NCBI RefSeq assembly: GCF_038025025.1
Contig: NW_027117341.1
Span: forward strand, 2,356,001 to 2,420,000
Source of the DNA: Phyllosticta citribraziliensis
Taxonomy: Eukaryota
Length of the DNA: 64,000 nucleotides
Direction: 5' to 3'
Part shown: positions 13,187 through 53,075 of the stretch, one piece after another
Layout of the letters: each line of letters opens with the position of its first letter
Numbering within the stretch: position 1 is the stretch's first letter
Program-made: the position numbers and the translations under genes
The notes under the pieces: model-generated
Databases searched by the model: none
Told to the model about the DNA's origin: nothing
What the model saw: only the letters and a program-made list of their open reading frames with translations

Positions 13187-13191
<5 letters not shown>

Positions 13192-14541: not shown

Positions 14542-14550
14542 CCTATTCTA

Positions 14551-20228: not shown

Positions 20229-20680
20229 GAGAATATTATTAGGTACTTTCTACTTTATATATACTATATAGACTTATTTTTATTAACTAAAAATATTAAT
20301 AATTTTTTTAGCTTTTATAAGTTTACCATATTAATAAAAAAGGAAGTTTTATAAATTACTAGCTTTAAATAGACGGCCTTTAGTACTAAATATACTAATA
20401 AGCTATCTTTAAATCTACTTAGTATAGTCTATACTATTAGCTATAAAGATAACTAGAGACTATAAGATAACTAAGCTAAACTAGTAAACTAGAGTTTTAT
20501 CCTAAGCTATATTAGCTACTATTTCTAGAAGATAAGTTAGTAGATATAAATAGTTATATAGCTTAAGCTATATTTTAACTATTTATTTATTTAGTTTAAC
20601 GTCCCTCTTAAGTCTAAGACTATAAGAGATGAGGATGGCTATCCTAGTAGTTCTATATAGCTTATATATTATATAACCTA

Positions 20681-23141: not shown

Positions 23142-23728
23142 TATTATAAGCTAATAGGTTACCTAATTAGTAGGCTAGTTCTAAGTAACTCTTTACCTAG
23201 TACTAGAGTATATAAGCATAGGAGGTAAAGCTAAGTAAGAGGGGTATATAAATAAGGTAGAAGTTAAGTTAGTAGTAAGTCTACTTAGAAGTATTAATTA
23301 TAAGAAAATAAAGATAGCTATCTATAGTATCTATATAATAAGATCCTTTTATATTCCCTTACCTAACTTACCTTAGGAATTATAATAGAAGGAAGGTAGG
23401 TATTATAAGAGAATAAGACCTTATCTTAGTCCTATATTATATAGTAGTTTACTAGCTTATTAGTAGTAATATATTTCTTAAAACTAACTACTTAGTTAAG
23501 TCCCTACTATAGGTATAGGAGGTTCTATTCTTATTTCTATTATTATATTAGCATTATATATATAAGTACTAGGGTTAAATTATCTAAGTAGCTATAGCTC
23601 TAGGGGAGTTAGGTAACTTTAGTATATATAGCTTATAGTTATAGCTAGTAGCTATAGTATAGGTGCACCTAGCACTTAATACTAAGTAGCATTTAATATA
23701 ATTATAGGTTTTTAGCTAACCTATAATA
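23142..23728. mobile_element. ~590-bp insertion (probable solo LTR) in LINE ORF2
   Basis: 5-bp TSD AACTC at 23137-23141 and 23729-23733. Removal rejoins ...LSKIE-LIYF (KTELIHF motif). Confidence 0.75.
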
Positions 23729-32863: not shown

Positions 32864-34065
32864 CAGCCAGCTTGAGCACGCAGCAGAAGCAGCCCTGTCA
32901 ACTCACTCCACATACTCTCGGCCGTTCCTTCCCGTGCGATGAGTTCGCTGCGATGGTGATGATGATGACGACGGAGAATCGAGAAGTACCATTTGCACCC
33001 TGGCAGTGAGAGAGCAGCAAGGAAAAGGCCCGGCATGCCATGAGGCGGCGGCAGCAGCGGCGGCCTATTCTAGCGGATACCCGACGACTCCAAGGGAGGC
33101 AGGCGTGCGACAAAAGATGAGCGCAGAATACGACTTGTTTCCAGAGCCGCGCTAATTCACCATGCAAAATCGCATCGCCGCGCAGGCCCCTCGCCGCGCA
33201 CCAAGGCGGCAAAGGAGGCACACGACGAGGTGCGGCCTTCGGCAGACGCCGTTGAAGAGCGCAGAGGGAAAGCGTGCGGCAGTTGACAGAGAGGGAGCCT
33301 GAAAGACGTCTTTGATGTTGACATCAACCAGACACCATCGTGACAGTCGGTTTCCGCCCGTATCTTGGAGTGGGCTTTGAGAGGTCGGCGGCCAAAGTCG
33401 ATGGGGACAGGCTTCTGGGTCTTCACGACAATCAGATCGCGGGCCAGGGCCAAGCTCGCAGTGACCACCACATCCGCCTCAACCTAGATCTTGTCTTCCG
33501 ACACCATGAGCCGAATCGGAGGGAGGTGCCTTGGTTCTGGCGTCTGCGCCATGTTCCGCTGGGGAAAGGACCCAATTGTGCGCTTGTTTGGTCCGGCGCG
33601 ACAGACAGTTGAGTCGCCAGGTGCGCTCACTCGTTCGATCCGCGCGCGCGCGCACATGCTTCGCTGGGGTCGCTGGGCCAACGACGACAAAGATGGCAAA
33701 ACAGGAGGATTTGTGTCAATGGGCTCCCGTGGCCGAACGTGGCCTGCGCGGGCGTCTTGTTCCCGGGGTTCGACGGTGCGCAGCCAGCGTGCTGGCGAAG
33801 GACGACGGAGATGGCGATGGAGACTGTGAAGACGTCGGTGCGGTGAGCTGAGGAGCAACGAGGCATCAACGATGGGGCCAGATACCTACCGGTTGGTGTG
33901 GAAGACGGCGGGGGTGCGATGACCGAGGACGGGACGGGACTTGAGTGTTGAAGGTTGTTGGGCCGGGTGGAGCCACGGGCATACATAGCTGCTGTGGCTA
34001 GGTAGGTTGTGGCTGGGGCGGATGCTGAGTTAGTGAGCTCGCAGCGTGGCGCCGGCCCATGGTCT

Positions 34066-34360
34066 TGTCGCTGGCGGGAAGAGGGCCTTCGGTTATCGCT
34101 GGCGGTGATGGCATTGTCGCTGGCGGGAATCATACTCGCCAGCGGGTATGGCCATACTCGCCGGCGGGAACCATACTCGCCAGCGGGTGACTCAGCCGCT
34201 TGCTCACGTGACGGGCATACTCGCCAGCGGGAATGGCCATACTCGCCGGCGGGAACCATACTCGCTAGCGGGTGACTCAGCCGCTTGCTCACGTGACGGG
34301 CATACTCGCCAGCGGGTATGGCCATACTCGCCGGCGGGAACCATACTCGCTAGCGGGAAT
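34066..34360 (+). repeat. Palindromic-motif array 1 (about 12 copies of CTCGCYRGCGGG)
   Basis: Units of 22, 19 and 44 bp form an 85-bp higher-order repeat. The 44-bp unit contains TGACTCA and TCACGTGA. Confidence 0.95.
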
Positions 34361-34971
34361 GGTGCCGGCTAGTCCGTAGTCAGTTAGTCCGCCAGGCCCG
34401 TGCGTGGTGCGCGCCTCGTCTCCACTTCCCACCTCAGCGCACCCCACCGCAGACAAAAAGATCGATTGATTGATTGGTTCGTGACGGCTATACTGAACAC
34501 GGTGCTTGAAGAAAGACCGACGTGTTGAGGAGAGGCCTCCGCCCTTGGCTCGTGGCTTTGCGGGCTTCTCCATTATTCCAATGGGCGTGAGAGTGTCGCG
34601 AGCAATGTGTATCGAGACTACCGTACGTGCCTCCAGCAATTGCGTGTCCTTGGGCGCCGCCTCTCGCAGCACCGCCCAGCTCGAAGCGTACCTGACCGCC
34701 TCACGAGGGACCTCCATAGTCATGGCGAAAAACGTTGCCTCCGCCGAGCCCAGGCATGGGGATGAGGGAAGAAAAAGAAGAGCAAGGACGCGCTAGGTGC
34801 ATGTTGATCGTGGGCTAGCGAGAAGGTATGTATGCAAAAAATCTTTAATGAAAATCCTGCTGCTGGGTATCATGCGGTGAAAAGCCATCGTGTTGCGCCC
34901 TCGTCACTCATGCCTGTCTGTCCATCAAAGCAAATCATCTGCGAGTCGATGCCGCGCTGCATCCTGATAAC

Positions 34972-37436
34972 TCATGTCTGTTCAAGAAGAGAATCGAGCC
35001 TCTTCACAAAGTCCTCGACCGCGGCAAGAGCGCCGTCTGTCGTCGAGCGCGCGTCCTTGGGCTCTGAAATGTCGCTGGCAAATTTGCAGGCTCGTCTCGC
35101 ACCACTGACAAAGCCGCCGTAACGGCGTCGGTCCTGCTGCAGCCGCAGCACCTGGCTCTTTATCGAAGCGACTTCAGCAGCAATTGCATCCTCGAGGGCA
35201 GCATTGCGTTTCGAAAATGCTCTCAAGCTTGCGCCGACTTGGTTCCGTTCCTCAATCTGCACGTTGAAGCTGGCCTGCTCCTCTGCCATCGTGCGTTGAA
35301 GAGCTGAGATGTCCGACGCGAGCGTGTTCATGGCGCGGCTACAGTCGCGGGCGTTGGTCGTAATGACAGCACGCCGGGCGATGGAGGCTTCTCTCTGAGC
35401 AGCCAGCTTCTGCGCGACCTGCTTGCAGTAGTTCCGCTGCTGTGTCATGGCATCCTTGACCGACATTCGGCCCTGCGATGGCCCAGGACCAGGACTGCCC
35501 AGGTCAATCATTTCATCCGGTAGCGTACATGGCGACTCTGAAAGCAGCGAGTAGAGCGCGTGGCGCCAGAACACGGCGTTGACAGCGGAGGGCATGGGAA
35601 CGTGCGCGCGCAAGTACAAGGCAAAAACCAAGACGTATACGCCGCAGTCGACACTGCCTCTTTGCTGCACGGCACTGCGCTCAACGAGGCGCCACTCTTC
35701 CCAATTCTCTTGTGGAACCCTGCGTCGAAAGAGCTGGCCTAGACGGGTTTTGGCCGCGTTGAAGTGCGCAAAGCTGGATGCCGAGTCGAACATGTCGGCT
35801 TCCTTGCGGCTCGAGTCGAGGACAATGAGACACCAATGGCTGTAGGAAGCGAGGTCGAGGTTGAGAGCTAGCATGGTAGAGCCAGAAATGGTTATGTTGG
35901 TGCCGACCCATGGTGGCGTAGTAAGGAGTGGATCAATGCACTGCCAGCCCGGCGCTGCGCAGATGACGGACAGGGCTTGGTGCATGACGACGTCATCGAC
36001 CATCTCGCCTGCGATGAGGGGTTGGAACGAATCTTTGGGGTTGTCGCCATCTGCGCGCTTCGGACCACTCTCCTCGTGCTTGGTCTCTGGTCCGGCGACG
36101 TTATCCAGCATCTCACAGTTGTCCAGAGTCTTGGTCGAAGCCTGTTCGTCGCCGGCCGCACGCTTCAAGCCCGTCTCGTCAAGCTTGACCTCTGATCCGG
36201 CCTCTTGCCCCGACTTGCTGCCCTGAGCCTCTGCTGATTGTTCGCTGGAGGCCTTTGCTGCTTGTTTGCCGATATCCCTTTGTATACTCGCCAGGAATCG
36301 TCTGCTCGAGGCAGCTCGGGCCTTTTTTATTCGCTCCTCGTGCTCCGGCCTGGGCCCGAACGGGTGCCTGATGTACGCTGGCTCCTCTAATGTCGCCGAA
36401 GCAGCTGAGAGCGAGCTGAACAGCAAGCTGTCGTTGTCGTTGGTGAGAAAACTCTCGTCGCCAGGCCCAGGCGAGGGAAGAGCGTTGACGTGTCGCCCAT
36501 GCTCCACCGCAGGGCTGTCAGAGCCGGATGATGCTCCCGAGTCTTCACTAGCAGTGTCCCAATCGCCGGCTTGTGTATCGCCGCCTAGATCCATGTTCTG
36601 TTGGTCTTGGTCGCCGTCTTCACTAGCAGTGTCCCCATCGCCGCCTTCTGTATCGTCATGAAGACCCATGTCGTCATCCTCGGAGGTGGAAACGTTGTCA
36701 GGCTCAGGCTCAGGCTCAGGCGCAGGCGGCTGCCGCTGGGCTCCGCTGCGCAATTTGAATTTGAAATCGAGAGGAGAGGAGCGAGCTTTTAGAGCTTTTG
36801 ACCCCATGCTCGCAGGGGTGGAATGGGCGCGCTGGTGACGGGTCCGTCGAGGTGATTTAGCCACGGGTTGGGACTCTGCGTCATCTGGCAAAGGCTGGCA
36901 AAAGGTCAGAAAACGGCGGCCAAGGGCGGCACTGCGAGCCGACAACTTACGCGCTTCTTTACCGGGGCCTGCTCTTGCTCGGGCTTGCGCTCTAGGATTT
37001 CGACGTCGCTGGGCACCCAGGCGCGACTGCGCGGCATCCGGGACTTTTCAGTGTTGTGACGGCGAGCGTCCCTGCTCTCGAGCAGCTTGGGGAGGGCATC
37101 TTCCAACGAGGTGGTGGTAGCCACTTTCTGGAGGCGACTCAAGAAGGTCGTCGACGTGATTGGAAAGATTTGCTGGAGATCGGTCTCAGGCACAGCCCAA
37201 AGGTTAGACAGAGACCTGATTCCGGCAGCCACGCGATTGTATTTTTTGGGCGTCAAGTTTTTGTAGGCCTCGATGATGGGCGCGACTTTGGGGTGCAGCT
37301 TCTGATCGATCGGCTGCTCGTGGCGATTCTTCAAGCAGACGTAGCTGCGGAGTAACCTTGTCGCGTGGACGCGCACCGCGTCGTCGAGCTGGTCGGCGTC
37401 ATCCTGAATAGAGACTGAGTCGGCGGGTGCCGCCAT
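34972..37436 (-). CDS. Ulp1/C48 (SUMO/ubiquitin-like) cysteine protease-like protein, ~802 aa, apparently intact (copy 1)
   Basis: Exon 1 37436-36951, GTAAGT...CTGAC...CAG intron 36950-36895, exon 2 36894-34972, frame preserved. Catalytic motifs SHWCLIVLD, MFDS, QQRGSVDCGVY. Acidic linker and C-terminal coiled coil. Confidence 0.85.
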
Positions 37437-37944
37437 GGCGGCGGAGGCGGGTGGCACGGGTGGCGATGGTTGAGATGGCGGTCGAGCATGTTGTTTGGTC
37501 GGCGTTGAGTGTGGGCGGGGTATGGTAAACAAAGAAGGAAGGAGAGGTTCGTCGTGACTAAGGTCAACCAAGGTTGACCGCCAAGCTTGGTCAAGATTGA
37601 CCAGAATCAACGAAGATTGACCGTCAATCCTCGCCAACCTTGGCAGTGCACGGTCTGCCCAGGCTGCTGGCAACAACTTTTCCCTCCCATGCATGTTCCC
37701 TCCGGTCGCACGCTCGCCTCCCTTACACTCCCATGGATTTATTTGCCGTGCCTGGCCAGCCTCACCTACGTCTCTGTCCTAGAAGCCGTTGACAAATTTC
37801 GTGCCAATTTGCCTTGTTGCTGCGATGCGAAACCGCGTGCCAGCGCTCAGTCCCTGCGACAGAGCCACTGGTTCTGCCGCCTGGTGCGCTGCTGGTAGGT
37901 AGGGCCTCGGCGCGCTGCTGTTGCGTGGCTCGAGGCAGCCAAGG

Positions 37945-38477
37945 TCATGTCGTCGAGGGACGTGCAGGGCAAATGGTGAAAAACAAAAGAATGTACTTCA
38001 TCGTGTCGCTGTGGTAGACCGACATCGTGTCGACGACGAACGGGCCTTCGAACTTGAACACGCCGGCAGCGTCGACGGCCACCCTCACGGGCCTGATCAG
38101 CACCCTACCTACCCTGCTCAACGTCGAGATCGTCACCAGGCACCTTCGCAGACTTGAATACGTCCATGGTCGGCATCAATGTTGTGCTCGCACATGGCCT
38201 TCCACTTGTCCAACATGATGCTTACATCCTCGCGCGTGGCCATACAGCAGAATCCCATGCAGCGCACCACCGGTCCTCAAAGCCGTACCCCATGCCGCAG
38301 CTGGTGCGCGAGTCTGATCGTGCGTGGCGTTGAGACCCTGATCATGCAGCCGAGCGCAAGCGTCCTCCCGCGCCCCGATGCCTTTGACTGCGGGGTGTAT
38401 ATACGACACGCCCACTCCGCGTACATGCTTGCTGTCTTGTACATCATCGCTGGGCTGGGTTGTCTCCGATCACCCAT
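37945..38477 (-). pseudogene. Disrupted hypothetical gene
   Basis: Coding-like minus-strand segments (38477-38277, 38136-37945) joined through a stop and a frameshift; no recognisable domain. Confidence 0.3.
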
Positions 38478-38681
38478 TTGAGCGCGCCGGGGGCCGAGGA
38501 GGACATGTCGACGGGGAAAACATGCACCATCAGAACCGTCAACATGCTGATATGACGAGAGCTAACAAAGCGTAGTTGTGTTGGATTGAGTAGTGGTTGT
38601 ATTAGCTATGAGTTGGGTCGCGACCGGCGGCGACAGATTCTGTGGGTACTCCAATCCCTAGAGAGGCGGCGGCCTTCCATT

Positions 38682-38852
38682 CTCGCCGGCGGGAATGGCT
38701 TTCACGCTGGCGAGTATGCCATTCCCGCTGGCGAGTATGCCGGTCACGTGAGTAAGTGGCTGAGTCACCCGCTAGCGAGTATGATTCCCGCTGGCGAGAT
38801 TGCCATTCCCGCTAGCGAGAATGACCCCCGTCGCCCTTCCCGCTAGCGAGAA
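38682..38852 (-). repeat. Palindromic-motif array 2, inverted relative to arrays 1, 3 and 4
   Basis: About 7 copies, mostly CCCGCT(A/G)GCGAG(tatg), with gtcacgtgag and tgagtca; reverse complement of the array 1 unit. Confidence 0.93.
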
Positions 38853-39732
38853 TGACTGCGCTCGACGGCGCTCAGCGGCTCGCTGTTCGTTTAACTGGCG
38901 CGCAACCTCAGTTTCCCGCACAGGCCTCCTCCACAAGTCAAAATAATCACGTACATACCAGATGGTGACCTCGACGACGCAAGAAGTGGATCAGGACAAA
39001 GGAAGCCAAGCCTGCTGGATGAGGATTTCTGGCCATCTTCTTCCGCCAATCAATCAGACAATCATCACCTCACGCTGTCATCGTGCTGCCGCCCGCCTGC
39101 TCCCGGTCCGCTACCACCTCCTCCACCACCACCACCACCACCAGAAGTCGCCGGCATGGCAGAACGCGATCGCGACAAGTATGACCTTATGCCACCACCC
39201 GAATGAAATAGCTGAGTAGAATGTGTGTATGACTATAAAAAAATCCAAGGCTGCACGACTTGCTTGGGGCATTGCGGGCAGTTGTGGTGCTGCTCGTCTC
39301 GCGCGCCTCGCTCCATGGATGGATGCGCGGTACAGGTACATTTCGTCCGGTCATAGCTGCGCTCGGCCTCGCCGGCGGCCTCGCGGCTGCGCTTCCCTTC
39401 CCTTCAAAAATTCCTCGTCCATGTGCCCAAACCACCACCGCCGCCATGTCCTTGGTCTCCCGCTCCCTCCCCCGCACCCCAAGGTTGAGCGACCGAACTT
39501 CCGCTCAACAACTCCCGCCAACTTCACGCGAGATGGCAAGATGGCAAGATGGCGGGAATACGGGAATGGTGGAATTGGCGAGATGGCGGGAATTCAGAAT
39601 GAGCTCGCTAGTGGTGATGCACAAGAAGATGCTGGGGCAATTGATGGTATTGGGTGTGGTGGGTTCTCAAGCCAAATACTAAGGTAGCGCGCCTGTCCGG
39701 CTAAATATCGGGCCAACAGCGGGCATTGCCTT

Positions 39733-39870
39733 GTCGCCGGCGGGAATAGGCTTTCTCGCTGGCGGCAATGGGGGGGGCCCTCTCGCTGGCGGGAATCATA
39801 CTCGCTGGCGGGTATGGCCATTCTCGCCGGCGGGTATCATACTCGCTAGCGGGTATGGCCTTCCCGCTGG
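39733..39870 (+). repeat. Palindromic-motif array 3
   Basis: About 6 copies of (C)TCGCYRGCGGG; followed by a 53-bp segment shared with array 1. Confidence 0.9.
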
Positions 39871-40124
39871 TGCCGGCTAGTCCGTAGTCAGTTAGTCCAC
39901 CAGGCCCGTGCGTGGTGCGCGTCTCCCGTCAGCAACGACTCTGGTATCACGGCGCGCGCGTCCTCCTCGCATTCAATGTAACTGTTTTTGCTCCTTCGGA
40001 CTCGCCACTGTGCCTGGCGTCCATCAGTGAAATCTGACCACACCGTCCCTGGCACCACCGAGAGTGCGAAACCTGACCACCGACTACCAAAACCTGGCCT
40101 GGTAACCGCTTCATGCCCGTTACA

Positions 40125-41038
40125 ATGGATATTCCACCCGGGCGTGCTAAGGCTCCAGCTCCAACGGCTCAGCAGTAGCTAGGTGCGATGGGACAGAAAC
40201 ACGCGCCGCGCAAACGCCCTCACCTGCGCGACGCACAAGAACTCGGAGAACTTCGTCTACGAGCAGCTCTTGCTGTACGCCAACGCTGGCGAGTTTGCTG
40301 CCGTCCGAGCTCGCGACCACAAGGTGTGTTTGGTTTTGGTTTGTTTGTTTTCTGGCATCCGACAGCAAAGCCATCTCGCCGGCTGGCCGGCTGGCTGAGC
40401 TGTGACTGACGGACTGACTGACTGTCTTCTGGCAGTGGATGGCGCCTGTACGCCCCGAAACCAACCAGCTCGCGTCTTGAGCGCGCTCCCGTCGAGCTTG
40501 AGCTCCCGCAGCCCCCGCCAGTCCAACAGGAGCACCACTGCCTCGTCTCTTTCGTCGTTCTCGTCCGATGACGACGGCGCCGACGACGAAACAAAATTCT
40601 CGGGCGATGAAGGCGTCGCCATCCCCACCCGTGGCGTGCGCTCCGTCTTGCCTTCTGACGAGCCACGCAGACGCAGCGCTTCCCACCGCGAGCTGCGCAC
40701 CGCCCGCGAGGCCATCTCCTCCTGGGCAGCTCGAGGTCCTCGCCACCACCAACCTGGTGCCGTACTACCAGCCGCGGGCGTCGCTCGAGATGTTCCGCCG
40801 CTCCATCGAGCGCCTGGATGTGGCGACGGGCATTCAGATGGCGATTGCGGATTTCGGGTCCAAGGGTTCGCCGAATTCCACGCGCACCGAGCCGTTTGTC
40901 CCGATGGCCATGGGAGGGAGGGTCTTAAAGACATGTCGCCATACCTACACGCCAGTAGGTAATCAAGTCTCTGGGCGGCGCCTGGTCTGCACAAGTCCGA
41001 ATTTTGTGTGTTGGATGCGGGCAAATGCCGCGCGCTAG
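40125..41038 (+). pseudogene. C3H-finger-like/'WMAP' family gene A, disrupted
   Basis: ...RRANALTCATHKNSENFVYEQL..., intron 40324-40435, then WMAPVRPE. Contains stop and frameshifts. Motifs and intron position match the gene at 42972. Confidence 0.6.
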
Positions 41039-41485
41039 AATTGACCGTGACCTACCTATGGTATCCTGCAGGTCGCGGGCGGAAAACGGACATGCTGTTT
41101 CCTGGGTATGATTAGCTTGATTGCTCCCTCTTCCCCTCTATCTCTTGGCTCCTCGCTCGCTCTCTTCCACCAGCTAGCTGACCTGCAAAATGAGCCGTCT
41201 CCTTTGATCAGGTCCAAGCCCAAGCCCGAGCCCGAGCGAAATGTCAAGCAACGACGGAGGAGGAGGAGGAGGAGGTCGAGGACCTACGGATGCCGAAGTC
41301 GAAGAAATGCTTCGACAAGCTGAAGCGAAGTGACGCAGGTGGCTACTGGCGCTCGTCAAGAACCACGCGGGCAAGATTGACCTTCTGATCGTTGGCCTCA
41401 CCGCCGTGGTCATCATGTAGCACCAGTAACTGCACGCGCAGAGACAGCAGCAGGACACGCAAATCATCGTCCTCAGGATCATCAA

Positions 41486-42705
41486 ATGGCCGTCATGGCC
41501 TCACACCAGTTCGGAGTCCTCGCGATGACGACGATTCCGCGACCGGACGGCCTCGGCAGCCTCTCAGACCAGATCGGCTCGTTTGCGCGCGTCGACGTGC
41601 TGCCCACCACCGACATCTCGCAGCTTTTGCTCGACAGGCTCATGGCCACGGCGTACGTGGTCAACGCAACGGTACCGCCAAAGCAACGCATGCGCAGCTG
41701 CACGAAATATGGTTGATGGTGACGTGGACGCGGTGCCGCGCGACGCGGCGAGGGCCGTGGGGCATTTGCGAAGGACTACCGCATGAGCAAGCTATCGATC
41801 AGGCTGGACGCGGTCGCGATACTGTCGACTTGGTGGTGGCCCATTACATCGAGGTACGTACCTACGCAACAACGAATCCAACATGAGTGAGAGCTAACGC
41901 GTCGACTGGCGCTGACTACAGCCATACTGCAAAAACTCCGGGCACATCGCCAACTCCCTCACGTTCCTTGAGCCTGCCATCGACCGCGCCAGTCAAAGCT
42001 TCGTCAACAAGCTGTCCGACGTCTTGTGGGTCCCGCAGTGGTTCAGCAGCGCGCCCCAGCAGCTGCAGCAGGGCGACGCGGAGCTGGCGTGCACGCGCGA
42101 GGTGGCCAAGGAGCTGGCCCCGTGCATCGACAAGCTGTGCGACGCCATGGCGCCGTGAGCGAGGAGAATATGGCCACGGAGGTGGACGAGTCGCACAGGA
42201 GGTTTGGACGGCGGCGGCGGCGGCTGGACTGCGACGACCGTCTTACAGGCAGAGGTGGTTCTCCCGCCTGGCGTGGCTCATCGCGTGGTGCAGAACTACC
42301 TTCGGTTGTGCTGCTGCGCGGACAGCATACTCCCACGTCGTGACGGAGATACGGTGATGGATGGCGCAGCAGTCGCTGGGCGATGGCCACTCGTCTAAGC
42401 GTGATGCTGCCACCGTGGACAGTCTCTAGCCGCTCTTCAAACTCTTCAACACCAATACGCCCAATGCCAACTACTCGGACACAAATATAAGGGTCATCCA
42501 GAAGTCATTGAAAAACTACATCAACAACATCGAGCTCCCAGCACTGCGCGACCGCGGAGTCGTCGACAAGGACACGGGCGCATGGGACAAGCAGGCCAAG
42601 CACGTCTGGGCGCGCGATGATTGGGATGGCGTCGACATCTTGCTGCGGTGTCTGGAAAAGGTACGCGCATCTTCCACACAAAGGATCGATCTCGCTGACG
42701 GGTGA
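41486..42705 (+). pseudogene. 'VTWT/LFKLFN' family gene C, frameshifted
   Basis: Segments in changing frames; GTACGT...GCTAAC/CTGAC...CAG intron 41854-41921; motifs LMVTWTRC, LFKLFNTNTP and WDKQAKHVW are shared with the gene at ~61900-63215. Confidence 0.6.
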
Positions 42706-42971
42706 TGGAAGGCGACCATGCCGCCGCCGGCGAAGAGGGAACCGGAGCCCTGCACGTCGTGAGCGTGCATCGTCTGGTCGAAGAGACCGACGTGTTTGTG
42801 CTCGAGGCGCGTCGTCGCTGTGTTGCTGGTGTCTGAGGTGGGTCAGCCTGCCTTTTTCCACCCATTCGTCCCCCGCCGTTGGAGAACTCACCCGTGCGTG
42901 TTGGGACAGACGAAGCAGATTATACCGCGATGAATACAGCTCCAATTCGACTCCCTCCAACCACTTAAAAG

Positions 42972-44108
42972 ATGGATTCCTCGCACCCAGCAGCCAACTC
43001 GGACTCCAACCAAGCCTTCCACCCTCTACAACTCACGACAATGATGGCCGCCAAAGCTCGCTCCAGTGCTGCTCTCAACTGCGCTCGACCAAGAACATTC
43101 AGTGCAGCAGGAACCGCCGACTCCAGATGTTGACGTGCACCTGGCACAAAAACTTGGAGCAATTCGTCCGCTCGCAGCTCAGCCCGAAGGAGCTGAAGCG
43201 CGTCCTCGATGGCGTCCAGGTCAGTCAGCTGTTTCAAAGCGAAAGGATGGTCGAACTGACTGACTGGCTGCCGCCGTGACAGTGGATGGCGCCCATGCGC
43301 CACGAGCCGGACTCCATCATTGTTAACATCAGCTACGTCGACTCGGCCTCCGAATCTGACGACTCTAAGCACGAGGAAGAAGAGGACAGCGATGGACTAT
43401 CATCCTTGAGCAGCATCGACGACGAGGTAATCGCAGGCCTTGGCCACAACCTCGCCAGCGTCAACCCACCCACTGGACCCCTGAGAGTCTGCGCACCGTA
43501 AGAGATGATCGTGGCCAAGGCCGCTGGTGGCTCTGGCGGTGCGCTCCTGGGCAGCCCATCCCCTGCTTCGAGTTCCTGTGTGCTGTCCAGTCCTCTGAGA
43601 TGCCTCTGTCCTCTTCTCACCACCACCCAGACGAACCTACGATGAGCGAACCTACGATGAGCGAACCTACGATGAGTGGTTCTCTCCCGGTCTCTCGCCG
43701 ACCGAGACTCTCCGCCCTAAACTCATGTCCCTGCGGTCGTCCTCTCCCACTTCTCCTTCACCACCGGTCTCGCCGACTGAGACTGTCCAACCTGGCCTAA
43801 TGTCCCTGCAGTCATCCTCTCACAGCTGCTCGGGCCAGTCGACTTCTCCTCTCCAGCTGCCGACGCCACTGCAAACGTTGCTGCCCGCTTTGCCCGCCGA
43901 GGCTGGCTCGGCGCGTCGTCCTACGGTCAAACTGCCCGCGCCGCTCGCGCGCGTCAAGTTAGACGACGCACCTATCTCTCGCCAGCTGGCGCCGCCGCTG
44001 CAAACGTTGCTGCCCGCTTCAACTGCTGAGGCTGGCTCAGCGTGTCGTCCCACGGTCAAACTGCCCAGCTATAAGACAATGGGGGGATTCTCGCAGCACC
44101 GTGGCTAG
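42972..44108 (+). pseudogene. C3H-finger-like/'WMAP' family gene B, disrupted
   Basis: C-x10-C-x10-C-x2-H (CSQLRSTKNIQCSRNRRLQMLTCTWHKN), intron 43220-43282, then WMAPMRHE, an acidic tract and a Pro/Ser tail with an internal duplication; contains frameshifts and a TAA stop. Confidence 0.65.
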
Positions 44109-45745
44109 GTGGTGTATAGAAAAGATGTTGTTGGCGATCTTTATTTCTTTCTCTTTCTACTTCCTATTTGCGTGATAGGAAGATCGGGTCATGTGGCGGA
44201 AGGGAAGGGATGTGAGGGTGCCATGGTATTTGTAGGTTCTCCTCAGCTGCCAGCTAGTAGTGAAGGCAAGCTAGATTGTGCATGCATTAGCCCAGATATA
44301 TTTACAATTGTACTTTTATGCGCACCTGTCGCCTTCTATTTAGTTTGCCGGCCGTCGCGACCACCAGCGAGAGAAGCCCACCCATCTACCCATCCCTCCT
44401 CTTCTTCGCCCTCGCGTCAGCAGCGATTTCCCCAATCTGGGGGGTCAAGAGATGGTCAGTCGCCTGCGTGTACCATACCATACCTACCTACCTACCTACC
44501 TACCGGGGGGAGGAGGTTGATGGTGGTGGCTACAGAGGAAACGAGACAAGATAAGACGAGTAGACGGCAGCTTTTGCCACGAGCGCGTCGCACGACAACT
44601 GCCCGGTATGTTTTGGTTTCCCGGCGGCGGCGGGCAACGGCGCCTGGCTTGCGGCGTCGGATCAGAGGGCAGGGCGTGGGATCACCAGAGAGAGAGAGAG
44701 AGAGAGTGAGAGAGAGGGAGGGAGGGAGGGAGGCGTCGTGCGCAGTCTGTCAAGCAAACAGCAACGGCCTCAACCTCGTGTCCACTTCCATTGGCCTCGG
44801 CCGACATTCAGGTCCGTTACAACTACCAGCAAAATTGACGTTGCAAGGCACCCTGGGGAGACGTCCCGGAGAAAGCTGGCAGCCACAAAGGCACCTCCAT
44901 GCTGCGGCTCTCAACCATGTCGAACTCGCACTTCACAAAGAGATGTTTCTGCGCGGCCAATCGCGTCCTCCTTTCCACCGCCGGGGCTCACATGCGCCGC
45001 CACGACTCGCCGCCTTCTTCTGCAGCGATATGGTGTTGACTGCTTGCCCGAATTCATGATGGCCTCGAGCAAGAAGAAGACGCCGCTGAGGTGCGCCGCC
45101 GTCACCATTCCAGTTCTCTCTGCAAATGTTCCCGGTCCTTGGACAAGAAGCCTCCTTGCGGCGCGGATGACGTTGTCTGTGTGCCTACGCGGTGCGGCGC
45201 GGTCCGTTGGCGCGCGACTCATTCCTTGCTGCCCGATTTTGAGCGCGGTGGTGGAAGATGAAGACGAAGACGAAGGAAGCCAAGTAAATGCGTTCTGTTG
45301 GCGCGGGCTTGCGAACACGATCATAGGGTGGTTCCGCCAGTATTCGGGTCCAGTGGATGTCGAGAACCCCCATCCGAATGTAGTTGTGCTGCGCGCGTGG
45401 GACGTGTTCTCTCGGTGTCATGTCCCTGGGCGGTAGCGGTAGGAGGGAGTCCGGATCAGATGGCACATTTTCAGCCGCCACCGGTGTGTCGTTGCAAGGA
45501 GGTTGTCGCGGTACAGGATCTGGACGTCGGCAGGCTGGAAGAGTGTGTCATTAGCGGCCTCGATTGCCAGCCAGTGGAGATGGTGGTGGTGTTGGTGGTG
45601 GAAAAGTACGAGGGAGGAGCTAGGTCGCCACCTACCTGTACCTTACCTACATGTACCCAGATTGGTAGTGACTTCTGAGAAGAGAAGGCATCACCCACCA
45701 TAAGTCCCAGCATATAATCCACTTGATCCCCGGGCTCGCTTGCGG

Positions 45746-45930
45746 GCCCCAGGCGAGCGCGCAGGCCCCAGGCGAGCGCGCAGGCCCCAGGCGAGCGCGC
45801 AGGCCCCAGGCGAGCGCGCAGGCCCCAGGCGAGCGCGCAGGCCCCAGGCGAGCGCGCAGGCCCCAGGCGAGCGCGCAGGCCCCAGGCGAGCGCGCAGGCC
45901 CCAGGCGAGCGCGCAGGCCCCAGGCGAGCG
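45746..45930. repeat. Perfect 19-bp tandem repeat (ccccaggcgagcgcgcagg), about 9-10 copies
   Basis: Read directly. Confidence 0.97.
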
Positions 45931-46399
45931 AGCAGAGCGCTTCGGCTTCGCTACCCGTAGTAGTCTTTCCCTTACACGGAACAAGAAACAAGAAACAACG
46001 ACGATGATGACGATGCCCATCATCTTCTACCATACCATGCCTCAGCCTGCACCGCCTCCCCGAAGCTCACAGATCCACCAACCATGTACTCATCGTGACG
46101 CCGCCTCAGGGTCAAGTGCGACAGAGGGCCCCCCTACAGCCTTGCTCGCCGGCTTGGGACCCTCAAACCTCAGCCCTGCTGCTGTCCGGATTGCGACGGG
46201 GAGAAATGTGATGTGATGATGATGGTGTGGCAAGAGGATGAGCCGAGGCTGATGATGCGGCAAGGGTGAGAGCAACCTTGGAAGGACAAGGCGGGGATGG
46301 CGACTGGTGGACACGACAGCGGCTCTTCCATGTCTCCTAGACCTTGCCAGTACATAGCAGGCAGCGGATGTTTAGATACTCCTAGCTGAGCGAGGGGCT

Positions 46400-47800
46400 A
46401 CAGAAAAGTGGATGCCCTTCAGTTGTGGTCGGCGGGCCAAGGGCGGTTGGCCTGCAGCGGTGGAGTGCTCTGCACACCCTGGTCCAACTTGCGTTTTTCC
46501 CCCGGGCCTAGGCTTGGTACCCTTTTCGGCGTCCTTTCACTTGCTCTTTGGGATGTACTTAGGTTCAACACCACCGCATTTCTTATTCTAGTACTCCTAA
46601 ACCTGATTAATTGGTTCGGGGCTGTCCATTAGGTTCTCTTTGGGCTCCCATGTCCTGTCCTCAAACTTGGGAAAACCCGCCCACATGATCTCGTATTTTA
46701 TGTTGACATCTGCGCCATCATACAAGTGGTTGAGGACCTGCTCCACGGCGAACTTCATCAACGGCTTCATCGTCGCCGTCTTCGTCTTCGTCCTTGGCCG
46801 GCTGCTTTTTCTTATTTTTCTTGTCAATTTCCTTGCAGGGTATCTCAGTTTCAGAAGCAGAGGCCTCGTCCTCGGAAAGCGCGGGCGGCATGTTGTGCGC
46901 GACTGCGCAGGGTGATGCTCAATTGGGATGATCAATGCTGAGGATGGAGACGGCAAGGTGCCCTCGCGCTCAAGGCGTGCAAGGTGCTGGTGTTGAGGGT
47001 TGGATCCAGTGACGGACGGATGCGGGAAACAGTGCTTTTGCGCAGGGGGGATGACCAGAACGGGTGTGCGGACGAGCTTTGGGCGCAACCCACGCCGTGC
47101 GCGATTCTCTGAAGCTTCTCCCGCTAAGATGTATCGAACTTGAAGGTCGCCGATACCGTAAAAGGGCTTCTCAGTGGGTGAGGGCCTGCGGCGGCTCGCG
47201 GAAGACGGGGTTGTCGCGGCAGAGAGGGACTTGAATCTCTGATACCAAGCCGTTCAAATACATCCGCCGGAATCTGTGGGCCAATATTGGAGGGGAGTGT
47301 GCGGACGAGACAGGAGAGCTATTGGACAATGAGGAAAAGCCTGCGCAGTGTGTCTGGTGGACTTTTCAAAGGTCAGCAAGGCCGCACACTGGCAATGAGA
47401 CCAAGGACGTACCATGAAGCCTGGACTGTGCTGTTCCATGGCTTTGCGAAACTCATTTTCGCGACGAGGCGAGGAACAACTGGTTCGAAGACAATGATGT
47501 GGTCCTGCGGGGTGGCGCGAGGACTGATGGCGAGAAGGATGAAGCTGTGGCTCTTCGATGCGAGATGCTCAGAAGACACGGGTTCTGATCCATCGCCCGG
47601 CGGCAGTGCGTGGGTGGGCTTCGGGTAGGCGTTGGGACTGGTTTCAAGATGGACATTGAAGGCTCCAGGTCCATGTCTCGTCCGAAGTGTAGCGCAAGAA
47701 GGTGGGCTGGCTATCTGTAGGTGTGACGGGAGGAGGACTTGTGTAAGCACGGACTTCCGTCAACTCTACCGTACCGGTACCTGTACTTCCTGAACCTCAG
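46400..47800 (-). pseudogene. Chromodomain-containing gene with nonsense lesions (ends approximate)
   Basis: FAVEQVLNH...KYEIMWAGFPKFEDRTWEPKENL at ~46757-46630 is a canonical chromodomain. It continues INQV*EY*NKK. Upstream GTACGT...CTGAC...AAG intron at ~47412-47362. Confidence 0.8.
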
Positions 47801-48586
47801 AGATATGACATCATACCTCGCGAGACGCCATCCTCAGGTCGCCCGACATATTCGCCTGAGCTGTGGCCTTCACCCACGCCTCGCCACCCACGCCTATTCT
47901 CTAGCCCGCTTCGCGAATCAAGACTTTGGGAACCGCCGCCATCGCCCAGCACATTCTCCCGGTCTGCGCACCATCCACTGGGCGCACCAACGCTCCGCGA
48001 ATCTCGCGCGTTCCTCTTTGATGGCACTGCACAAGTCTCCAGGTCGGTCCGCAAACGACGCCAACCTCCCCGCTCGAGCGCACCATCCTCCGACAATCGC
48101 CAATCGCGGTTTGGGTAGGTTGTCAAGTTGTCTGTTTTTGGCTTGGGGATATTGGTAACATGAATGGCAGTTTCAATCAGCTTTCCCCTCTTCGACCCTC
48201 CGGCTCAATTCGCGACCGACCTCTCGTCGAACACCTATCGAGGGCAGGATTGGTTCTGCACGTCCCAAGCAAGGCAATTCCGCCATCCGCCATCCGCCGG
48301 CCTCGTCTGCGCGCAAAGGACGCCGCCTGAAAACCAATCTACCTATCCATCCATCCATCCCCTTCATCGTCAACGTCGAATCCTGTCTCCAAATATTCCT
48401 GGCCGTGGACTTATTTTATCGAGGTGACGTACGTACCAGGCATCTTTTCAATCGACGTTGACGGGCGGCAGCGGCCAAGGGCGGTCGGTTTCCATGAAGC
48501 AAAATAGAAGTAGTGCAGGTATCGACTAAAAAGGGACGGCCGACGTGCGGACAATGAGGATGAGGCTAAGGGGCTACTTTCCACAG

Positions 48587-49984
48587 TCAAGGGGTCTCCT
48601 GACAAGTCTGGAGGCGCCTCGAACTGCGACCGTGGTGGCATGGATGCAGCCAAGGGGAATTCAAGGCAAACATATCATCTATCTCATCTACCTCTTTTTC
48701 CTTGGTGCATCTGTCCGCCTTCATCTGCTTGGTTGGCAGGCACCATGTCCAGCTTGGGCGGGACTTGGGGCACCTAAGCTGTTGTGGTAGTGGGTAATCC
48801 TCGACGCGCAGTGGTACCGGCAACAAATACCCCAGACTTTCAAGGCTGACAGCGAGAAAGTAGTCAAGTGAAAGTGCGAAGCAGCAGTTGAACAAGAAGA
48901 TTGGCCGCGTTGGGCTAACGGTGAGCAGAAAGGGAAAGGGGACGTACGCACCTGGGTCGGCTTGATCAGGCTGGCGTTCACATGCTGCTCCAGATTGCGC
49001 ATGGTCTCGATGATAAATAAATTCGATGGTCGTATCGACCGTCCTGGAAACTTGGTCAATCATCATGTTGTCGCATCGGGACACGGTCTCGGCCTCTTGG
49101 ATGACATGGCTGCGGACTTGTCCCCATAGCTGCCACGTCTGCTGGACATTGGTGGCGAGCAGTAAAGACTCGGTGGCGACGTCGTCGAGCGTGGCCAACA
49201 GCTTCGGGCCGTCCTTGTGGACGGCAGTTTGCGCGAGCCACCTCGACTCAAGCGACCCAAGGACCGCGGCTTGTTTTTGGCCGTAGTTGCTGAGCACCAT
49301 GCCCGTCTTGAGCGGCTTGATGTGGCCTTGTTTGAAGGCCGCCTCGCCCGACGCGGCCACGGTCAAACGTCACTCGTCGCGGCTGCTGGTGGGCGGTTGA
49401 AGGATGAAGGGCACGATGAGCGACACGAACAGCACGAGGCAGCTGCCGAAGATGAGCACTTGTTTCTAGTAGCTCCACCATGACCTCGTCGGCGTCGCCC
49501 GCATCGCCAGCTACTCGTTCGCCTGGTACAGCTGCTGGTCTCTCTCTGCCAACTGGTCGTGCAAGTTGCTGATGGTGTTTTGCTTTTCGCGGTTCCCGGC
49601 CTTTCCAGTCATTCGAGACACCGTCAGTCTTCTTCCTTGTTGCTGCGCAATGAACTTGGCATTTGCAAGCAAAAACCCACCTGCAACTCGGCCATCTCTC
49701 AAGTCCATGTGCAAACGAGTACGTGCAGCGCATTCGGCCACCTCGTCCTCCTCCACCCTGTTGCAAGAAACAATGCTGACATCAGAAGCAAATCGACACT
49801 GCCAGTCTCGACATCCGGATGGCGAGCCTCTTTCTTGATGATTTCCCACAGATGGTGCCCATGCCCATGTCCTCTGCCACCGCTTCATCGCCGTCGTCGC
49901 CACTGCTACCGCAGCCAACTGCCGCACCGCCCGAGCGCAATTGTCTGGGTTTCTTTGTAGAGTGCGGGGGCCTGGCATCTCCAT
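48587..49984 (-). pseudogene. Coiled-coil + transmembrane hypothetical protein with three in-frame stops
   Basis: ORFs 49511-49984 and 48587-49366 share a frame and are bridged by NE*LAMRATPTRSWWSY*KQVLIFGSCLVLFVSLIVPFILQ...DE*RL. Confidence 0.55.
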
Positions 49985-50460
49985 CCCCTACTTTATCTTT
50001 TTCTCCCTTTTCTTTCCTGTCTGCCGCTCTCTCTGCATCTGGTCGCGTTTGTCACCTGTTTTTCCCAGCTTCGCAATGATTTGTTCCCGTGCAACATGTG
50101 CTGAAACACGGACGCCTACCACACGCCGATCCCGACGGCGTTTGCCACCATGGCTTCGTATTCATTTCCCCGTACCGTGTTCTTCCACCCAAAGCTTTTG
50201 TTGTTCGCATGGTGCTCTCCCTCTCTCTCTCTCGTCGTTTTAAATAAGGTTCGGCCGTTCATCGGTGGCTGCGCTACAGCCCGCGTGGCGATCAAACTGC
50301 CTAGAAGCGTTAGCCTAGACGCCTGGAAGGCTGACGGACGGACGGACGGACGGACGGAGGGATGAGAGAGAGAGAGAGAGCATTGGTTTTCCCTGGCTGC
50401 TGCATGGTGTCAAGGCAGGCGGCGGCGGACCAAAAACATGGTCAGTCGTGTCGCTTGGAC

Positions 50461-52103
50461 TCACTGCTTCTTGGTCAGGATTCCATGTATGTGGGAAGAC
50501 AGCGATGAGTGGAGGGGCATGGAAGGAAACGCGCTCCGTCTGTCTGGCGGCGCGCCAAGAATCGGATTATTTTCCAAAGGACATTCATCATTACTGGGAG
50601 CAGTTAGTTCTTCTGCTAGTAAAAATGCACTCACACCATGTCGGAAAAAACGCACGTCGCACTCCCAGATCGCCTTCCTCATCAACAAATCATTTGATGG
50701 CAGTTTAGACAGCGGCCCTTGGCGCGGATTTGTTCGACGATGGTGCGGCCGCGAGGGAGGGTCTTGCGCCAGGCTTGGAGGTCTAAGGTGTCATTTGGTC
50801 GACAGGCGTTGAGCGAGAGACGTCGGAGTCATAGACCGTCGAAACAGGGTCGCTCGACAAACAGCAACGACGGTCAACGCTGTCTAGTGGGTGTTTTCCG
50901 TGGCATTCATCGCGGGCTTTGCGACTAGAGAGAGGCAACCAGGGGGTCGGTTACTGCGGCGTCGACAGGCCATCCACCTTAATCGCTAGAGTTTGAATTC
51001 CCGAACGGGCACAGCCGCTAGATCATTGCCCGCGGTATGCCTACCAAGAACTACTGCGTCGGCATGCCATGAATCTCCGTTGCTGTTATGGAAATCCTGA
51101 GATGGGAAAGTTGACTCTGCCCCCGGAAGCATTCCTGCTCCACTGATGCTAAAATTGGCCCAGATTTAGTCTCACACCTCAACCGCTCTCCTTCAATGGG
51201 TCTGACGTACCAATCGCCGTGCCACTGGACTTCAAAACGGCGTCCACCTTCCCTGATTCGGTCCTCCAACTGCCAAAGCCCTGAAACTCTTCGCGCCCAT
51301 GGCCTTTGAGCGTCACACTCGTTGTTTCTCTGGTCTCAGCTTTCCATCAAGTCTGACATCGCCAGCTTCACTGACGCGCTGGAGTCATGTCTCTGGCCGA
51401 ATTCGCTGAAGCTTTCCGAACTCGCGCCCTGCAGCTTCATTGCTTGAGCCACTGCTGCCGTGTCGCGCGCCAATCCGTCTTCATAAAAACCTCGCTTCGA
51501 GTCTTCCTTTCTCCAAGACGACAGCTATTCAGACGAAGCTCCTAAATATTCGCGCGGCGCACAACGCGCAAATCGACTGGCAGAGGATTGAAGTGACGGA
51601 ACTGCGAGACGTGGCCAACGATCGAGCCAGCGGGCAAATGGGAGGGAGGCGCGGGTAGTGAACAAGATGATGCTGCAATGGCGCTGGATCAGCTCGAGCG
51701 GGAAGACCCAAATCAGTTGAGTCGGTGAAAAGAGGAAATTGAAAGGGCAGCACGGAGACAGAGTATCTGCCATCTGGCGGGGTAAGCCAAGAGCAGACCA
51801 CGGGTTGGATGAAACTCGAAGGACGGGTTACTTTTCTGCTCATTTGCACCAGTAGTGGTTGCGAGAGTCCAGCGAATGGGTGTGCCTCATACCGCGCGCG
51901 GGTGGCTGGAACAGATGGACAAGGCTTTGTGGCCCGCATGTACTGATACTTCTCCTCCGAATCCGAGTGAGCCGGCGCTTCATTGAGGAGCGAGTTGGAC
52001 GACTCGTCTTCAACCGAGGGCACTTGGCCCCAGCTCCTTCGACGAGCTCAAGGCGTGTAGACGGCCATTGAAGGACCCTAGCATTGACAGCAGGCGCCAT
52101 CAC
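50461..52103 (-). pseudogene. Disrupted hypothetical gene with a weak chromodomain-like segment
   Basis: Several minus-strand ORF pieces. LEDRIREGGRRFEVQWHGDW (~51269-51210) resembles a chromodomain N-terminal half but lacks the TWEP motif. Confidence 0.3.
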
Positions 52104-52691
52104 TTGGCGCAGCAGAACTCAGGCAGACCAGAACCTTGTGTCAGTCGCGGTGTAGGAGATGAAGGATGGACGGTGTGAGGTCATCCGGAGAGACGCAGTT
52201 GGTCGGGTGGTCGGCCGAGAGAACCCGCGAAGACAGTCAACTGGCGTTCATCCGAGACGAAAGCTTTGGAACCTTTCATCTCTATTGTCCACATTCCAAG
52301 ATTGTAGCAGCTGCGGTTCGCCCCGGTGGCAGTACATGTGCGCGAATGAAATGATGGAGTCGATGCTGTGCTGAGGTGCGGCGCGTGTGTTGTGAGCCGA
52401 AGCGCATGGGCGCAGGAGCTGCATTGGCAGAGTCGCTGGGATGGCATCACGGCGAGACAGGGATGATGGACGGCACCCACTGCTGCCGGGAGCGGTTTGA
52501 TCGTGCTGGTGAGCAATGTTCCTGGAGGCAGGAATGGAGGAAACAGACAGGAGCCGTATGAGCTCACGAAACTTCCAGGTCAATGGGGCGAAGACGTGCG
52601 TCGCGGGTGCAGACGGGAGCAGGCTGGTGGCTGTTGTTGTTGAAGTGTCGTTGCGACGCGCGATCGGACGGAGACGGAGACGGAGACGGAG

Positions 52692-53075
52692 TCTCGCCAT
52701 CTCGCCAGCGGATCTCGCCAGCGGGAATGCCCAATCTCGCTAGCGGGTGACTCAGCCGCTTGCTCAGGTGACCGGCATACCCGCCAGCGGGAATGGCCAT
52801 GCTCGCCGGCGGGAATGGCCATACTCGCCAGCGGGTGACTCAGCTGCTTGCTCACGTGACGGGCATACTCGCCAGCGGGAATGGCCATACTCGCCAGCGG
52901 AAACCATACTCGCCAGCGGAAACCATACTCGCCAGCGGAAACCATACTCGCCAGCGGGTGACTCAGCCGCTTGCTCATGTGACCGGCATACTCGCCAGCG
53001 GGAATGGCCATACTCGCTGGCGGGAATCATATCTCGCTAGCGGGAATGCGTAATCCGATCTCGCCAGCGGAAATG
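52692..53075 (+). repeat. Palindromic-motif array 4 (about 15 copies), ~210 bp upstream of Ulp1-like copy 2
   Basis: Same 19/22/44-bp units as array 1, including three TGACTCA and CACGTG/CAGGTG/CATGTG variants. Confidence 0.95.

Follow-up and report, generated by a model that had tools for sequence, protein, structure and literature searches.

Arrays of a 12-bp quasi-palindrome confined to two putative accessory units with centromere-type genes in Phyllosticta citribraziliensis

Small accessory chromosomes with divergent histone and chromatin genes of their own are described for Metarhizium robertsii (chrA, chrB) and Magnaporthe oryzae (mChrA) (PMC10945790, PMC13545237), and a 2025 review postulates a signal that tells an accessory chromosome from the rest, naming none in its accessible text (PMC13545237). 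As far as the available parts of the reports go, the accessory chromosomes of Zymoseptoria tritici are silenced and show meiotic drive of unknown mechanism (PMC6331196, PMC4589918), the sorghum B chromosome encodes CENH3-B, CENP-C, Mis12, and the SUMO protease ESD4 (bioRxiv 10.1101/2025.10.07.680864), and drive of the maize B chromosome depends on the B-specific repeat ZmBs (PMC8201846). In the accessible text on Arabidopsis, the VANDAL/VANC anti-silencing system works with a short motif that has piled up by tandem-repeat formation in non-coding parts (PMC5735166). Here, we analyzed a 64,000-bp stretch of Phyllosticta citribraziliensis (contig NW_027117341.1, positions 2,356,001 to 2,420,000; hereafter the window), in which a first-pass annotation had noticed intergenic arrays of a 12-bp quasi-palindrome. 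These arrays are real, non-random, and confined to what appear, from their sequence, to be accessory mini-chromosome units with an unexpected centromere gene kit, and we propose a candidate function for them.

Like the Metarhizium and Magnaporthe chromosomes, the units are small, apparently accessory, and carry divergent histone and chromatin genes. The main texts on those two fungi describe H2B/H3-like histones and modifiers and name no CenH3, Scm3, Ulp1, or DNA motif (PMC10945790, PMC13545237), whereas here we find CenH3 together with an Scm3 protein bearing Myb repeats (Scm3-Myb), Brr6, a protease family, and a chromosome-specific motif array. The closest likeness met in this work is to VANDAL/VANC, where, in the available text, the motif is dense in tandem repeats and sparse elsewhere and its density gives specificity (PMC5735166). 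VANDALs, however, are described there as Mutator-like transposons with a transposase and a proven binder (PMC5735166), whereas the carrier here is telomere-bounded and has a candidate binder only, and the motif, a quasi-palindrome, is joined by two additional sites of host type. The arrays are not a member of the VANDAL/VANC system: their carrier ends in telomere tracts, and no transposase was seen in the frames scanned with Pfam (about 340 of more than 3100 frames of at least 60 aa, picked by length or coding score, from DNA outside the AT-rich blocks). The plant B chromosomes share a B-encoded centromere histone and SUMO protease (sorghum) and a B-specific repeat as likely cis factor of drive (maize), but they are megabase chromosomes, ZmBs is a long centromeric satellite, and the accessible texts mention no B-encoded loader of the Scm3/HJURP type. 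Z. tritici, also a Dothideomycete, has orphan-rich accessory chromosomes with drive (PMC4589918, PMC6331196); their centromeres differ in resembling core ones, with no consensus motif and no private CenH3 mentioned in the available text (PMC4589918). We found nothing in the literature searched, which took in few subscription journals and no supplements, that describes these arrays, mini-chromosomes in Phyllosticta, or CenH3 together with Scm3 on an accessory chromosome of a fungus; an earlier mention is nonetheless possible.

Scanning the window with CYCGCYRGCGRG at one mismatch or fewer gave 44 matches against 1.84 ± 1.43 expected (100 shuffles; largest 8), and 39 of them fall inside four arrays. 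With two mismatches allowed outside the centre, the four arrays hold 40 cores (12 + 7 + 6 + 15), which bears out the four arrays and roughly 40 copies seen at first. The arrays and their associated elements are:

34067..34357, plus strand: array 1, 12 cores; the inner part is an 85-bp higher-order repeat (22 + 19 + 44 bp) in 2.7 copies, 97% alike
34188..34219, plus strand: insert of the 44-bp unit in array 1, consisting of TGACTCAG, a variable 7-bp linker, and TCACGTGAC; second copy at 34273-34304
34360..34417, plus strand: shared 58-bp flank, 97% like the right flank of array 3 (39868-39925)
38682..38850, minus strand: array 2, 7 cores, the first on the plus and six on the minus strand; one 44-bp unit at 38736-38767
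39733..39870, plus strand: array 3, 6 cores (up to 39853, one of them at 39782), then a fading tail; without a 44-bp unit
52701..53071, plus strand: array 4, 15 cores; 44-bp units at 52748, 52836, and 52959; three 19-bp units in tandem

Array 2 had been called inverted, which fits six of its cores but not the first. All four arrays are intergenic and close to gene starts; arrays 2, 3, and 4 had been placed 5' of cluster genes, and array 1 can be added to them, lying about 80 bp 5' of a minus-strand spliced gene. Each array is a chain of units, 19-23 bp long and built around CTCGC-YR-GCGGG; some units became 42/44-bp ones with an E-box, TCACGTGAC, and TGACTCA; the 44-bp unit carrying these two sites was absent from the earlier description. 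GC content is 60-66%, and orientation flips occur within arrays. The core is indeed a quasi-palindrome, as annotated, but its usual form, CTCGCYRGCGGG, is polar, and pair 2/11 is complementary in just 22% of 171 copies. The spacers AATGGCCATA and AATCATA are themselves near-dyads like the cores, so that an array is a chain of dyads. Edge copies, said to keep only the core, do keep it (match 0.94), with the flank reduced (0.64 versus 0.78 in inner copies) rather than gone, a result that is partly circular because copies were chosen by their core. The 58-bp flank common to arrays 1 and 3 appears to be a trace of copying between the two sites.

The 36 gaps between window cores measure 19 bp (ten), 22 bp (ten), 21 bp (four), 20 bp (one), 44 bp (six), and five other lengths (13-31 bp). 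A spacing of two helical turns, as proposed at first, is therefore approximate only: Rayleigh R was 0.67 at 10.5 bp, stayed at 0.60-0.71 from 10 to 12 bp, and was 0.35 on distinct lengths. Of the 187 units in the spacing analysis, 16 were E-box half-units and were dropped. We set strict helical phasing aside, as 19 and 22 bp alternate, R is flat, and phasing is not separable from a ~21-bp monomer and its dimer.

To place the arrays in the genome, we searched the 31.4-Mb assembly, whose closest named protein matches are to Phyllosticta (contigs here labeled C2, C4, C5, C6, C9, C10, C11, and C13; C4 holds the window). All 93 matches of the 16-mer CATACTCGCYRGCGGG lie on C4 (2.245 and 2.390-2.409 Mb), C5 (5-145 kb), and C13 (1.208-1.353 Mb), and its reversed control gave none. 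A looser 13-mer gave 46 matches, seven of them scattered singles outside array regions. Tandem pairs of the minimal core gave 154 matches; among the 100 listed, 99 lie in array regions and one on C6, and we would expect the other 54 on C13, mirroring the 58 matches of C5. C13:1209415-1358182 is the reverse complement of C5:148770-1 (99.99% identity over the compared parts, C13:1290001-1320000 being left out), so the arrays of C5 and C13 were counted once. Scanned with a weight matrix, 414 kb of array regions gave 18 clusters (17 arrays), and 275 kb of DNA from elsewhere gave none; no arrays were found near C6:94 kb (terminal-protein homologue), C11:1325.8 kb (Scm3 piece), or C6:1517 kb (CenH3 piece). 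The 17-array family is confined to two orphan-gene units, one on C4 and one on C5/C13; the genome-wide scatter as a minisatellite or miniature inverted-repeat transposable element (MITE) that would have refuted the annotation's reading is not what we see.

The pattern of constraint is as distinctive as the distribution. Across 15 distinct in-register 44-bp units, the two cores differ from consensus by 2.0% and 0.8% and the E-box by 4%, while TGACTCAG shows no difference (0%) and the linker differs by 21%. The 20 distinct 42-bp units differ by 1.5%, 1.2%, and 2.5% in the kept elements and by 17% in the linker. The early impression that the core is more constant than the spacers was correct, as core arms vary far less than linkers (0.8-2.0% versus 17-21%). 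Of 170 full cores, 166 retain the CG of CTCGC, whereas only 24 of 43 orphaned half-sites ahead of an E-box keep it (43 being 57 rows less 14 reverse-strand double counts); neutral decay would have read 58-89% through the half-site detector used. The E-box derives from a decayed core whose left half survives as the orphan CTCGC. The centre of the core is CA in 63 copies, CG in 47, TG in 36, TA in 23, and GG in one, i.e., pyrimidine-purine in 169 of 170, and it varies within all 17 arrays. Such constraint is what one would expect of two half-sites touched by a protein and a centre that is not, which favors protein binding but is no proof of it.

Confinement and low core-arm variation together favor binding sites over a drifting satellite, the choice made in the first-pass annotation, although the arrays plainly evolve as a minisatellite, with higher-order repeats. 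Our preferred reading, which we hold with about even confidence, is that they serve accessory mini-chromosomes as chromosome-specific binding arrays for multiple factors and keep the chromatin around them open or active. To the observed confinement, footprint, intergenic position, and gene kit, this reading adds a putative binder, effect, and route of spread. Array units would arise by slippage and fold-back, and copies would move between sites by ectopic conversion. Selection would keep units whose core arms are bound by a candidate dimeric protein, most likely encoded by the mini-chromosome itself (the basic helical N-domain of the Ulp1-type proteases or an Scm3-Myb paralog), while host bHLH and bZIP factors may occupy the E-box and TGACTCA. 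The most likely local effect would be nucleosome-poor, active chromatin, in which neighboring mini-chromosome genes are expressed against the usual silencing of accessory chromosomes. Tandem motif arrays would be used as by VANC proteins, with specificity coming from site density and not from exact phase.

Several points weigh against this reading. The copies share ancestry, perhaps six events among the 43 half-sites versus four among the 170 cores, and the footprint counts are not independent because the copies are related by descent. The two added sites are putative factor sites by their consensus: TGACTCA, of the AP-1/Gcn4 type (bZIP), and RTCACRTG, the CDEI consensus, which 41 of 45 E-box copies fit (CTCACGTGAC 35, CTCATGTGAC 6). 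No binder of the core was found, and the N-domain is without a fold match in the PDB and viral libraries. A 145-kb stretch of the C4 unit is array-free though its genes are intact. Tight co-location with protease genes, as first envisaged, is not supported: an array lies within 1.3 kb upstream in just four of nine, which gives P 0.0015 versus random points but P 0.06-0.17 under a fairer gene-start null. Finally, the units hold many unrelated minisatellites, 64 Tandem Repeats Finder rows in 391 kb (arrays included) versus 14 in 234 kb elsewhere, as well as a second dispersed repeat family (GGGAAGCCGAGA) at three or more loci.

The last of these points fits a neutral or selfish dispersed minisatellite, in which a chain of dyads folds back, slips, and spreads by ectopic conversion, intact palindromes propagating with no protein reader; we regard this as improbable, yet deserving real weight. 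It would account for the recent 85-bp higher-order repeats, the orientation flips, and the uneven spread on C4. The fold-back of the arrays is also more stable than that of shuffles (DNA z -3.6, RNA z -5.6), and all four window arrays fold more stably than every one of 25 GC-matched control stretches. Among 34 array flanks compared, five unrelated pairs are alike. Outside the arrays, the two units share just 24 alignable GC-rich patches (3.2 kb in total, 69-91% identity), and these look exchanged; the 44-bp array units of the two nevertheless differ by a few bases, which indicates either recent spread or homogenization, or selection holding them. A process without a reader leaves unexplained why TGACTCAG is invariant in 19 of 19 copies although it lies outside the core dyad, why the centre (41%) and pair 2/11 (22%) have not been driven to complementarity even though this would stabilize a hairpin, and why the 31-Mb core genome has no array.

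The unit on C4 runs for 252.4 kb from a (CCCTAA)n tract at 2235030-2235089 to (TTAGGG)n, now decayed, at 2487347-2487466, and in this assembly is joined to core C4 via 11 kb of AT-rich DNA. A 160-bp repeat decayed by repeat-induced point mutation (RIP) lies inverted inside both ends; its only other sites are within the AT block of the unit and at the end of C5/C13, with an intact telomere tract following it there at C13:1358181. In another assembly with the same species label, genes for a protein identical to the left-arm Scm3-Myb and for a cluster mate of a right-arm protease lie on one contig of 253,010 bp. Telomere tracts, private terminal repeat, and this contig together suggest that the C4 unit is a mini-chromosome, fused or mis-joined to C4 in this assembly. 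The same status is less clear for the C5/C13 unit, with one telomeric end visible and its genes on a 598,952-bp contig in the other assembly. Three other Phyllosticta species have orthologs of unit genes, most of them on contigs 95-240 kb long and some on contigs of 14 kb, 300-590 kb, and 1.1 Mb, in assemblies that are possibly fragmentary. The units give few Pfam matches, chiefly to C48, histone, Scm3, Myb, Brr6, and chromo, versus ordinary enzyme families in the flanking DNA.

A live telomere lies 12 kb beyond the decayed right tract of the C4 unit; C4:2487347-2499641 runs from the decayed telomere through 12 kb of RIP-mutated DNA, flanked at both ends by one ~280-bp block, to the live telomere, and the 12-kb stretch is likely a telomere-inserted retroelement. 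Each unit has an AT block of 41-47 kb, which on C4 carries a 98% inverted repeat and reaches into the window:

1..28900, no strand assigned: right part of a 47-kb AT-rich, RIP-mutated block; 9780-14975 is one inverted-repeat arm (98%); array-free

The two 5-kb arms (window 9780-14975 versus C4:2350586-2355702) surround a 10-kb core and carry the subtelomeric 160-bp repeat; the structure is possibly a centromere or a fold-back scar. The RIP index is 0.05 in the AT block versus 1.24-1.26 in the arrays and GC-rich parts, which show no RIP signature. The 148.8-kb duplicate of C5 and C13 (C5:1-148770 and C13:1358182-1209415) is not RIP-mutated, and its junction on C5 lies inside an IML1 frame that looks truncated (~750 codons visible); it may be a recent translocation or an assembly product. 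Directly left of the C13 unit (C13:1161-1196k) is a nonribosomal peptide synthetase cluster with P450s, O-methyltransferases, a dipeptidase, and MFS, which from its gene content we take to be epipolythiodioxopiperazine-like, and in core DNA left of the C4 unit (C4:2177-2181k) are two ankyrin-repeat frames with an SsdA_C deaminase-type domain.

The canonical copies of H3, CenH3, Scm3, and Brr6 are on C10, C9, C2, and C9, respectively. Extra CenH3-like genes lie at C4:2326.9k and C5:129k, and each adjoins an Scm3 gene with Myb repeats (C4:2326893-2328342; C5:127818-129598), that of C4 being intact (C4:2327662-2328342). CenH3 proteins are marked by a long loop 1, Trp in place of H3 Phe84, and the lack of Gln68, and both extra copies have the long loop, the Trp, and the non-Gln residue. 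They also share the intron position of core CenH3, whereas H3 is without that intron. Identity of the C4 and C5 copies is 66% and 61% to CenH3 versus 61% and 52% to H3; a PDB search scarcely separates Cnp1 (72 bits) from H3 (70.5). By apparent descent and sequence marks, we read the extra histone genes as CenH3. Each unit also has a copy of the Brr6/Brl1 domain (C4:2299137-2299487; C5:147351-147689), Brr6 acting at the nuclear envelope and spindle pole. A third CenH3 fragment at C5:76.2k ends 145 bp from the array at C5:75980, and stray broken copies of the C5 unit's Scm3 and CenH3 lie among core genes (C11:1325.6-1325.9k, C6:1517.3k). Other observations are a weak match to CENP-H, under the cut-off (C4:2307332-2307856), an Lsm12-type AD domain (C5:93.7k), single C2H2 fingers (C5:13.7k and C5:72.6k), and an Scm3 piece directly after a protease fragment (C5:12.1k).

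With such genes at hand, the arrays could serve as the cis address for segregation or drive machinery private to the mini-chromosome, in which Scm3-Myb, by sequence or through cruciforms, would load its own CenH3, or the N-domain proteases would act as tethers; on balance, we find this unlikely. The link between Scm3 and cruciforms is itself a speculation in the available part of the literature (PMC5889037). The pairing of CenH3-like and Scm3-Myb genes on both units, the additional Brr6, and the CenH3 features just described all speak for it. So does the spacing on C5, with one array per 5-16 kb outside the AT block, and so does the E-box, which matches the CDEI consensus and whose variants include CTCATGTGAC six times and CTCACATGAC never, a 6:0 count that may reflect three or four events. 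On C4, by contrast, the arrays are clumped, and 63 kb separate the CenH3/Scm3 pair from the closest of them; the arrays are GC-rich and without CDEII/CDEIII-like parts, the AT block of each unit is an ordinary centromere candidate, and the third CenH3 copy and the copies on C6 and C11 are fragments. The fuller version, a fungal B chromosome with its own identity system in which CenH3, an Scm3-Myb loader, Brr6, and DNA-tethered SUMO-type proteases read the arrays as an address for assembling a private centromere or drive apparatus, is likewise doubtful.

Other partition systems offer anatomical parallels. The pairing centres of Caenorhabditis elegans are chromosome-specific clusters of ~12-bp motifs at ~20-bp spacing, read by a dedicated C2H2 protein in meiosis; CDEI of budding yeast is a Cbf1-type E-box, and 2-micron STB and bacterial parS are read by dedicated partition proteins. 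The likeness is anatomical only, as no zinc-finger, Rep, or ParB homologue is shown here, and of the budding-yeast point centromere a CDEI-type site is present (41 of 45), but AT-rich CDEII/CDEIII have no counterpart in the listed units. A further candidate reader was suggested by TGGCGGGAA, which resembles what we take to be the E2F consensus; we set an E2F-site array aside, as the genome gave no candidate for E2F/DP (PF02319), in a search whose prokaryote controls offered no positive test.

The protein-coding and other features around the window arrays are:

33300..33986, minus strand: orphan gene, spliced, with its presumed start about 80 bp away from array 1; left end provisional; intron 33824-33889, with a CT..AC joint in run X1
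34972..37440, minus strand: Ulp1-type (C48) protease with helical N-domain (PF02902, E 4e-6); intron 36895-36950; between arrays 1 and 2
40183..43660, plus strand: two spliced orphan genes, paralogs of each other, to the right of array 3; 'WMAP' exon starts at 40436 and 43283; no Pfam match
45728..45935, plus strand: separate 19-bp minisatellite in ten copies, beginning with a core-like 12-mer; relative at C5:146717-146860
46597..47253, minus strand: chromodomain open frame (PF00385, E 9e-8)
53286..55990, plus strand: Ulp1-type gene in fragments, its start 215 bp to the right of array 4
58044..60613, plus strand: protease gene of the Ulp1 type that carries the N-domain; no array adjoins it, the nearest being 5 kb away

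The first WMAP gene has a stop 14 codons beyond its splice joint, and the C3H finger of the first-pass annotation was not recovered by Pfam in the frames scanned. Right of array 4, ahead of the broken protease gene, 53100-53265 holds more AP-1/CRE-like words (GATGAGTCAG, TGACTGACT, TGACGCA). Further minisatellites of the units lie at C4:2439346-2439466 and C4:2275.3-2276.6k, 2413.2k, and 2444.6k; among the other minisatellites, two begin with a core-like 12-mer and one 22-bp repeat contains a core-like dyad.

Seven of the 11 Peptidase_C48 matches in the genome, one of them a mirror, lie in the units, and a local comparison adds three. The unit proteases share an N-domain of ~150 residues (window 36954-37433, minus strand; 58044-58493, plus strand), which has 235 representatives at E<0.001; C48 is present in 21 of 30 long matches tested, and those with a named source are from Dothideomycetes. 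The predicted model is all-helical and confident (pLDDT 92.6), with a median net charge of +5. Foldseek gave no match under E 0.001 in the PDB or viral libraries, the Atlas gave no usable match, a PDB sequence search gave none, and the top VIA score, Z 5.3 with a ParB-parS domain (rmsd 3.2 for 60 residues), was tied with unrelated chains. The predicted fold is thus unclassified, and the domain appears to be undescribed. In a tree of 15 protease domains (15 of 24 proteins, nine being left out by a motif filter), four of the seven paralogs of this genome group with other Phyllosticta sequences on long branches, and all seven keep the His and Cys motifs, so the family is old. Beside the terminal repeat of each unit is one of two homologous orphan proteins of ~560 aa (C4:2482496-2484535; C5:2864-4804), with a distant copy at C6:94 kb; the protein has look-alike clusters across Ascomycota, no family, and a low-confidence model (pLDDT 39).

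Dense short repeats are typical of the subterminal ends of mobile elements, and arrays 1 and 2 point toward each other from either side of a 4.3-kb protease gene, as inverted ends would. A reading as subterminal repeats, iterons, or MITE remnants is nonetheless largely refuted and now very improbable: the 34 flanks have no terminal sequence in common, most of the 17 arrays are unpaired, and the unit ends in telomeres. The iteron or subterminal-repeat character considered at first is hence not borne out, with no DDE transposase and no recombinase among the open frames scanned. Starships, large orphan-rich mobile blocks of ascomycetes, have a DUF3435 tyrosine-recombinase captain at the 5' end; the block here differs in ending in telomeres, and DUF3435 gave no match in the genome, nor did the controls give one.

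Two other sequence runs bear on expression and conservation, in favor of the binding-array reading. Run X1 has GT-AG joints in genes beside the arrays, and on these joints alone we take it to be RNA and the region to be expressed in that sample. In run X6, from another organism, window 34448-38415 is kept at ~94% identity, and long contigs stop at the arrays; the depth at 38803 is 606 versus 60-70 on single-copy DNA (about nine times), which suggests that the second organism also holds many array-like copies, while at array 4 X6 gives no cover and is uninformative. Contigs of X1 span array 1 as well as arrays 2-3 and reach into array 4, and together with the stable predicted hairpins this would suit arrays selected for their structure, as RNA or DNA hairpins serving as a small-RNA source or a start of recombination or replication. 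We give this little credence, as the arms are kept by sequence and not by compensatory change, Rfam gave no match in window 29000-64000, and contigs cannot prove a transcript through an array.

How fungal accessory chromosomes are distinguished from core ones for drive, retention, or transfer is an open question. The accessory-only arrays are a candidate cis signal that is short, mappable, and deletable, and it stands beside candidate trans factors: CenH3, Scm3-Myb, Brr6, and the N-domain proteases. Among these, the DNA-binding-like N-domain is fused to Ulp1-type proteases in many Dothideomycetes and may be such a factor. Even if the arrays were mere enhancers, a centromere kit encoded by the chromosome itself would be surprising.

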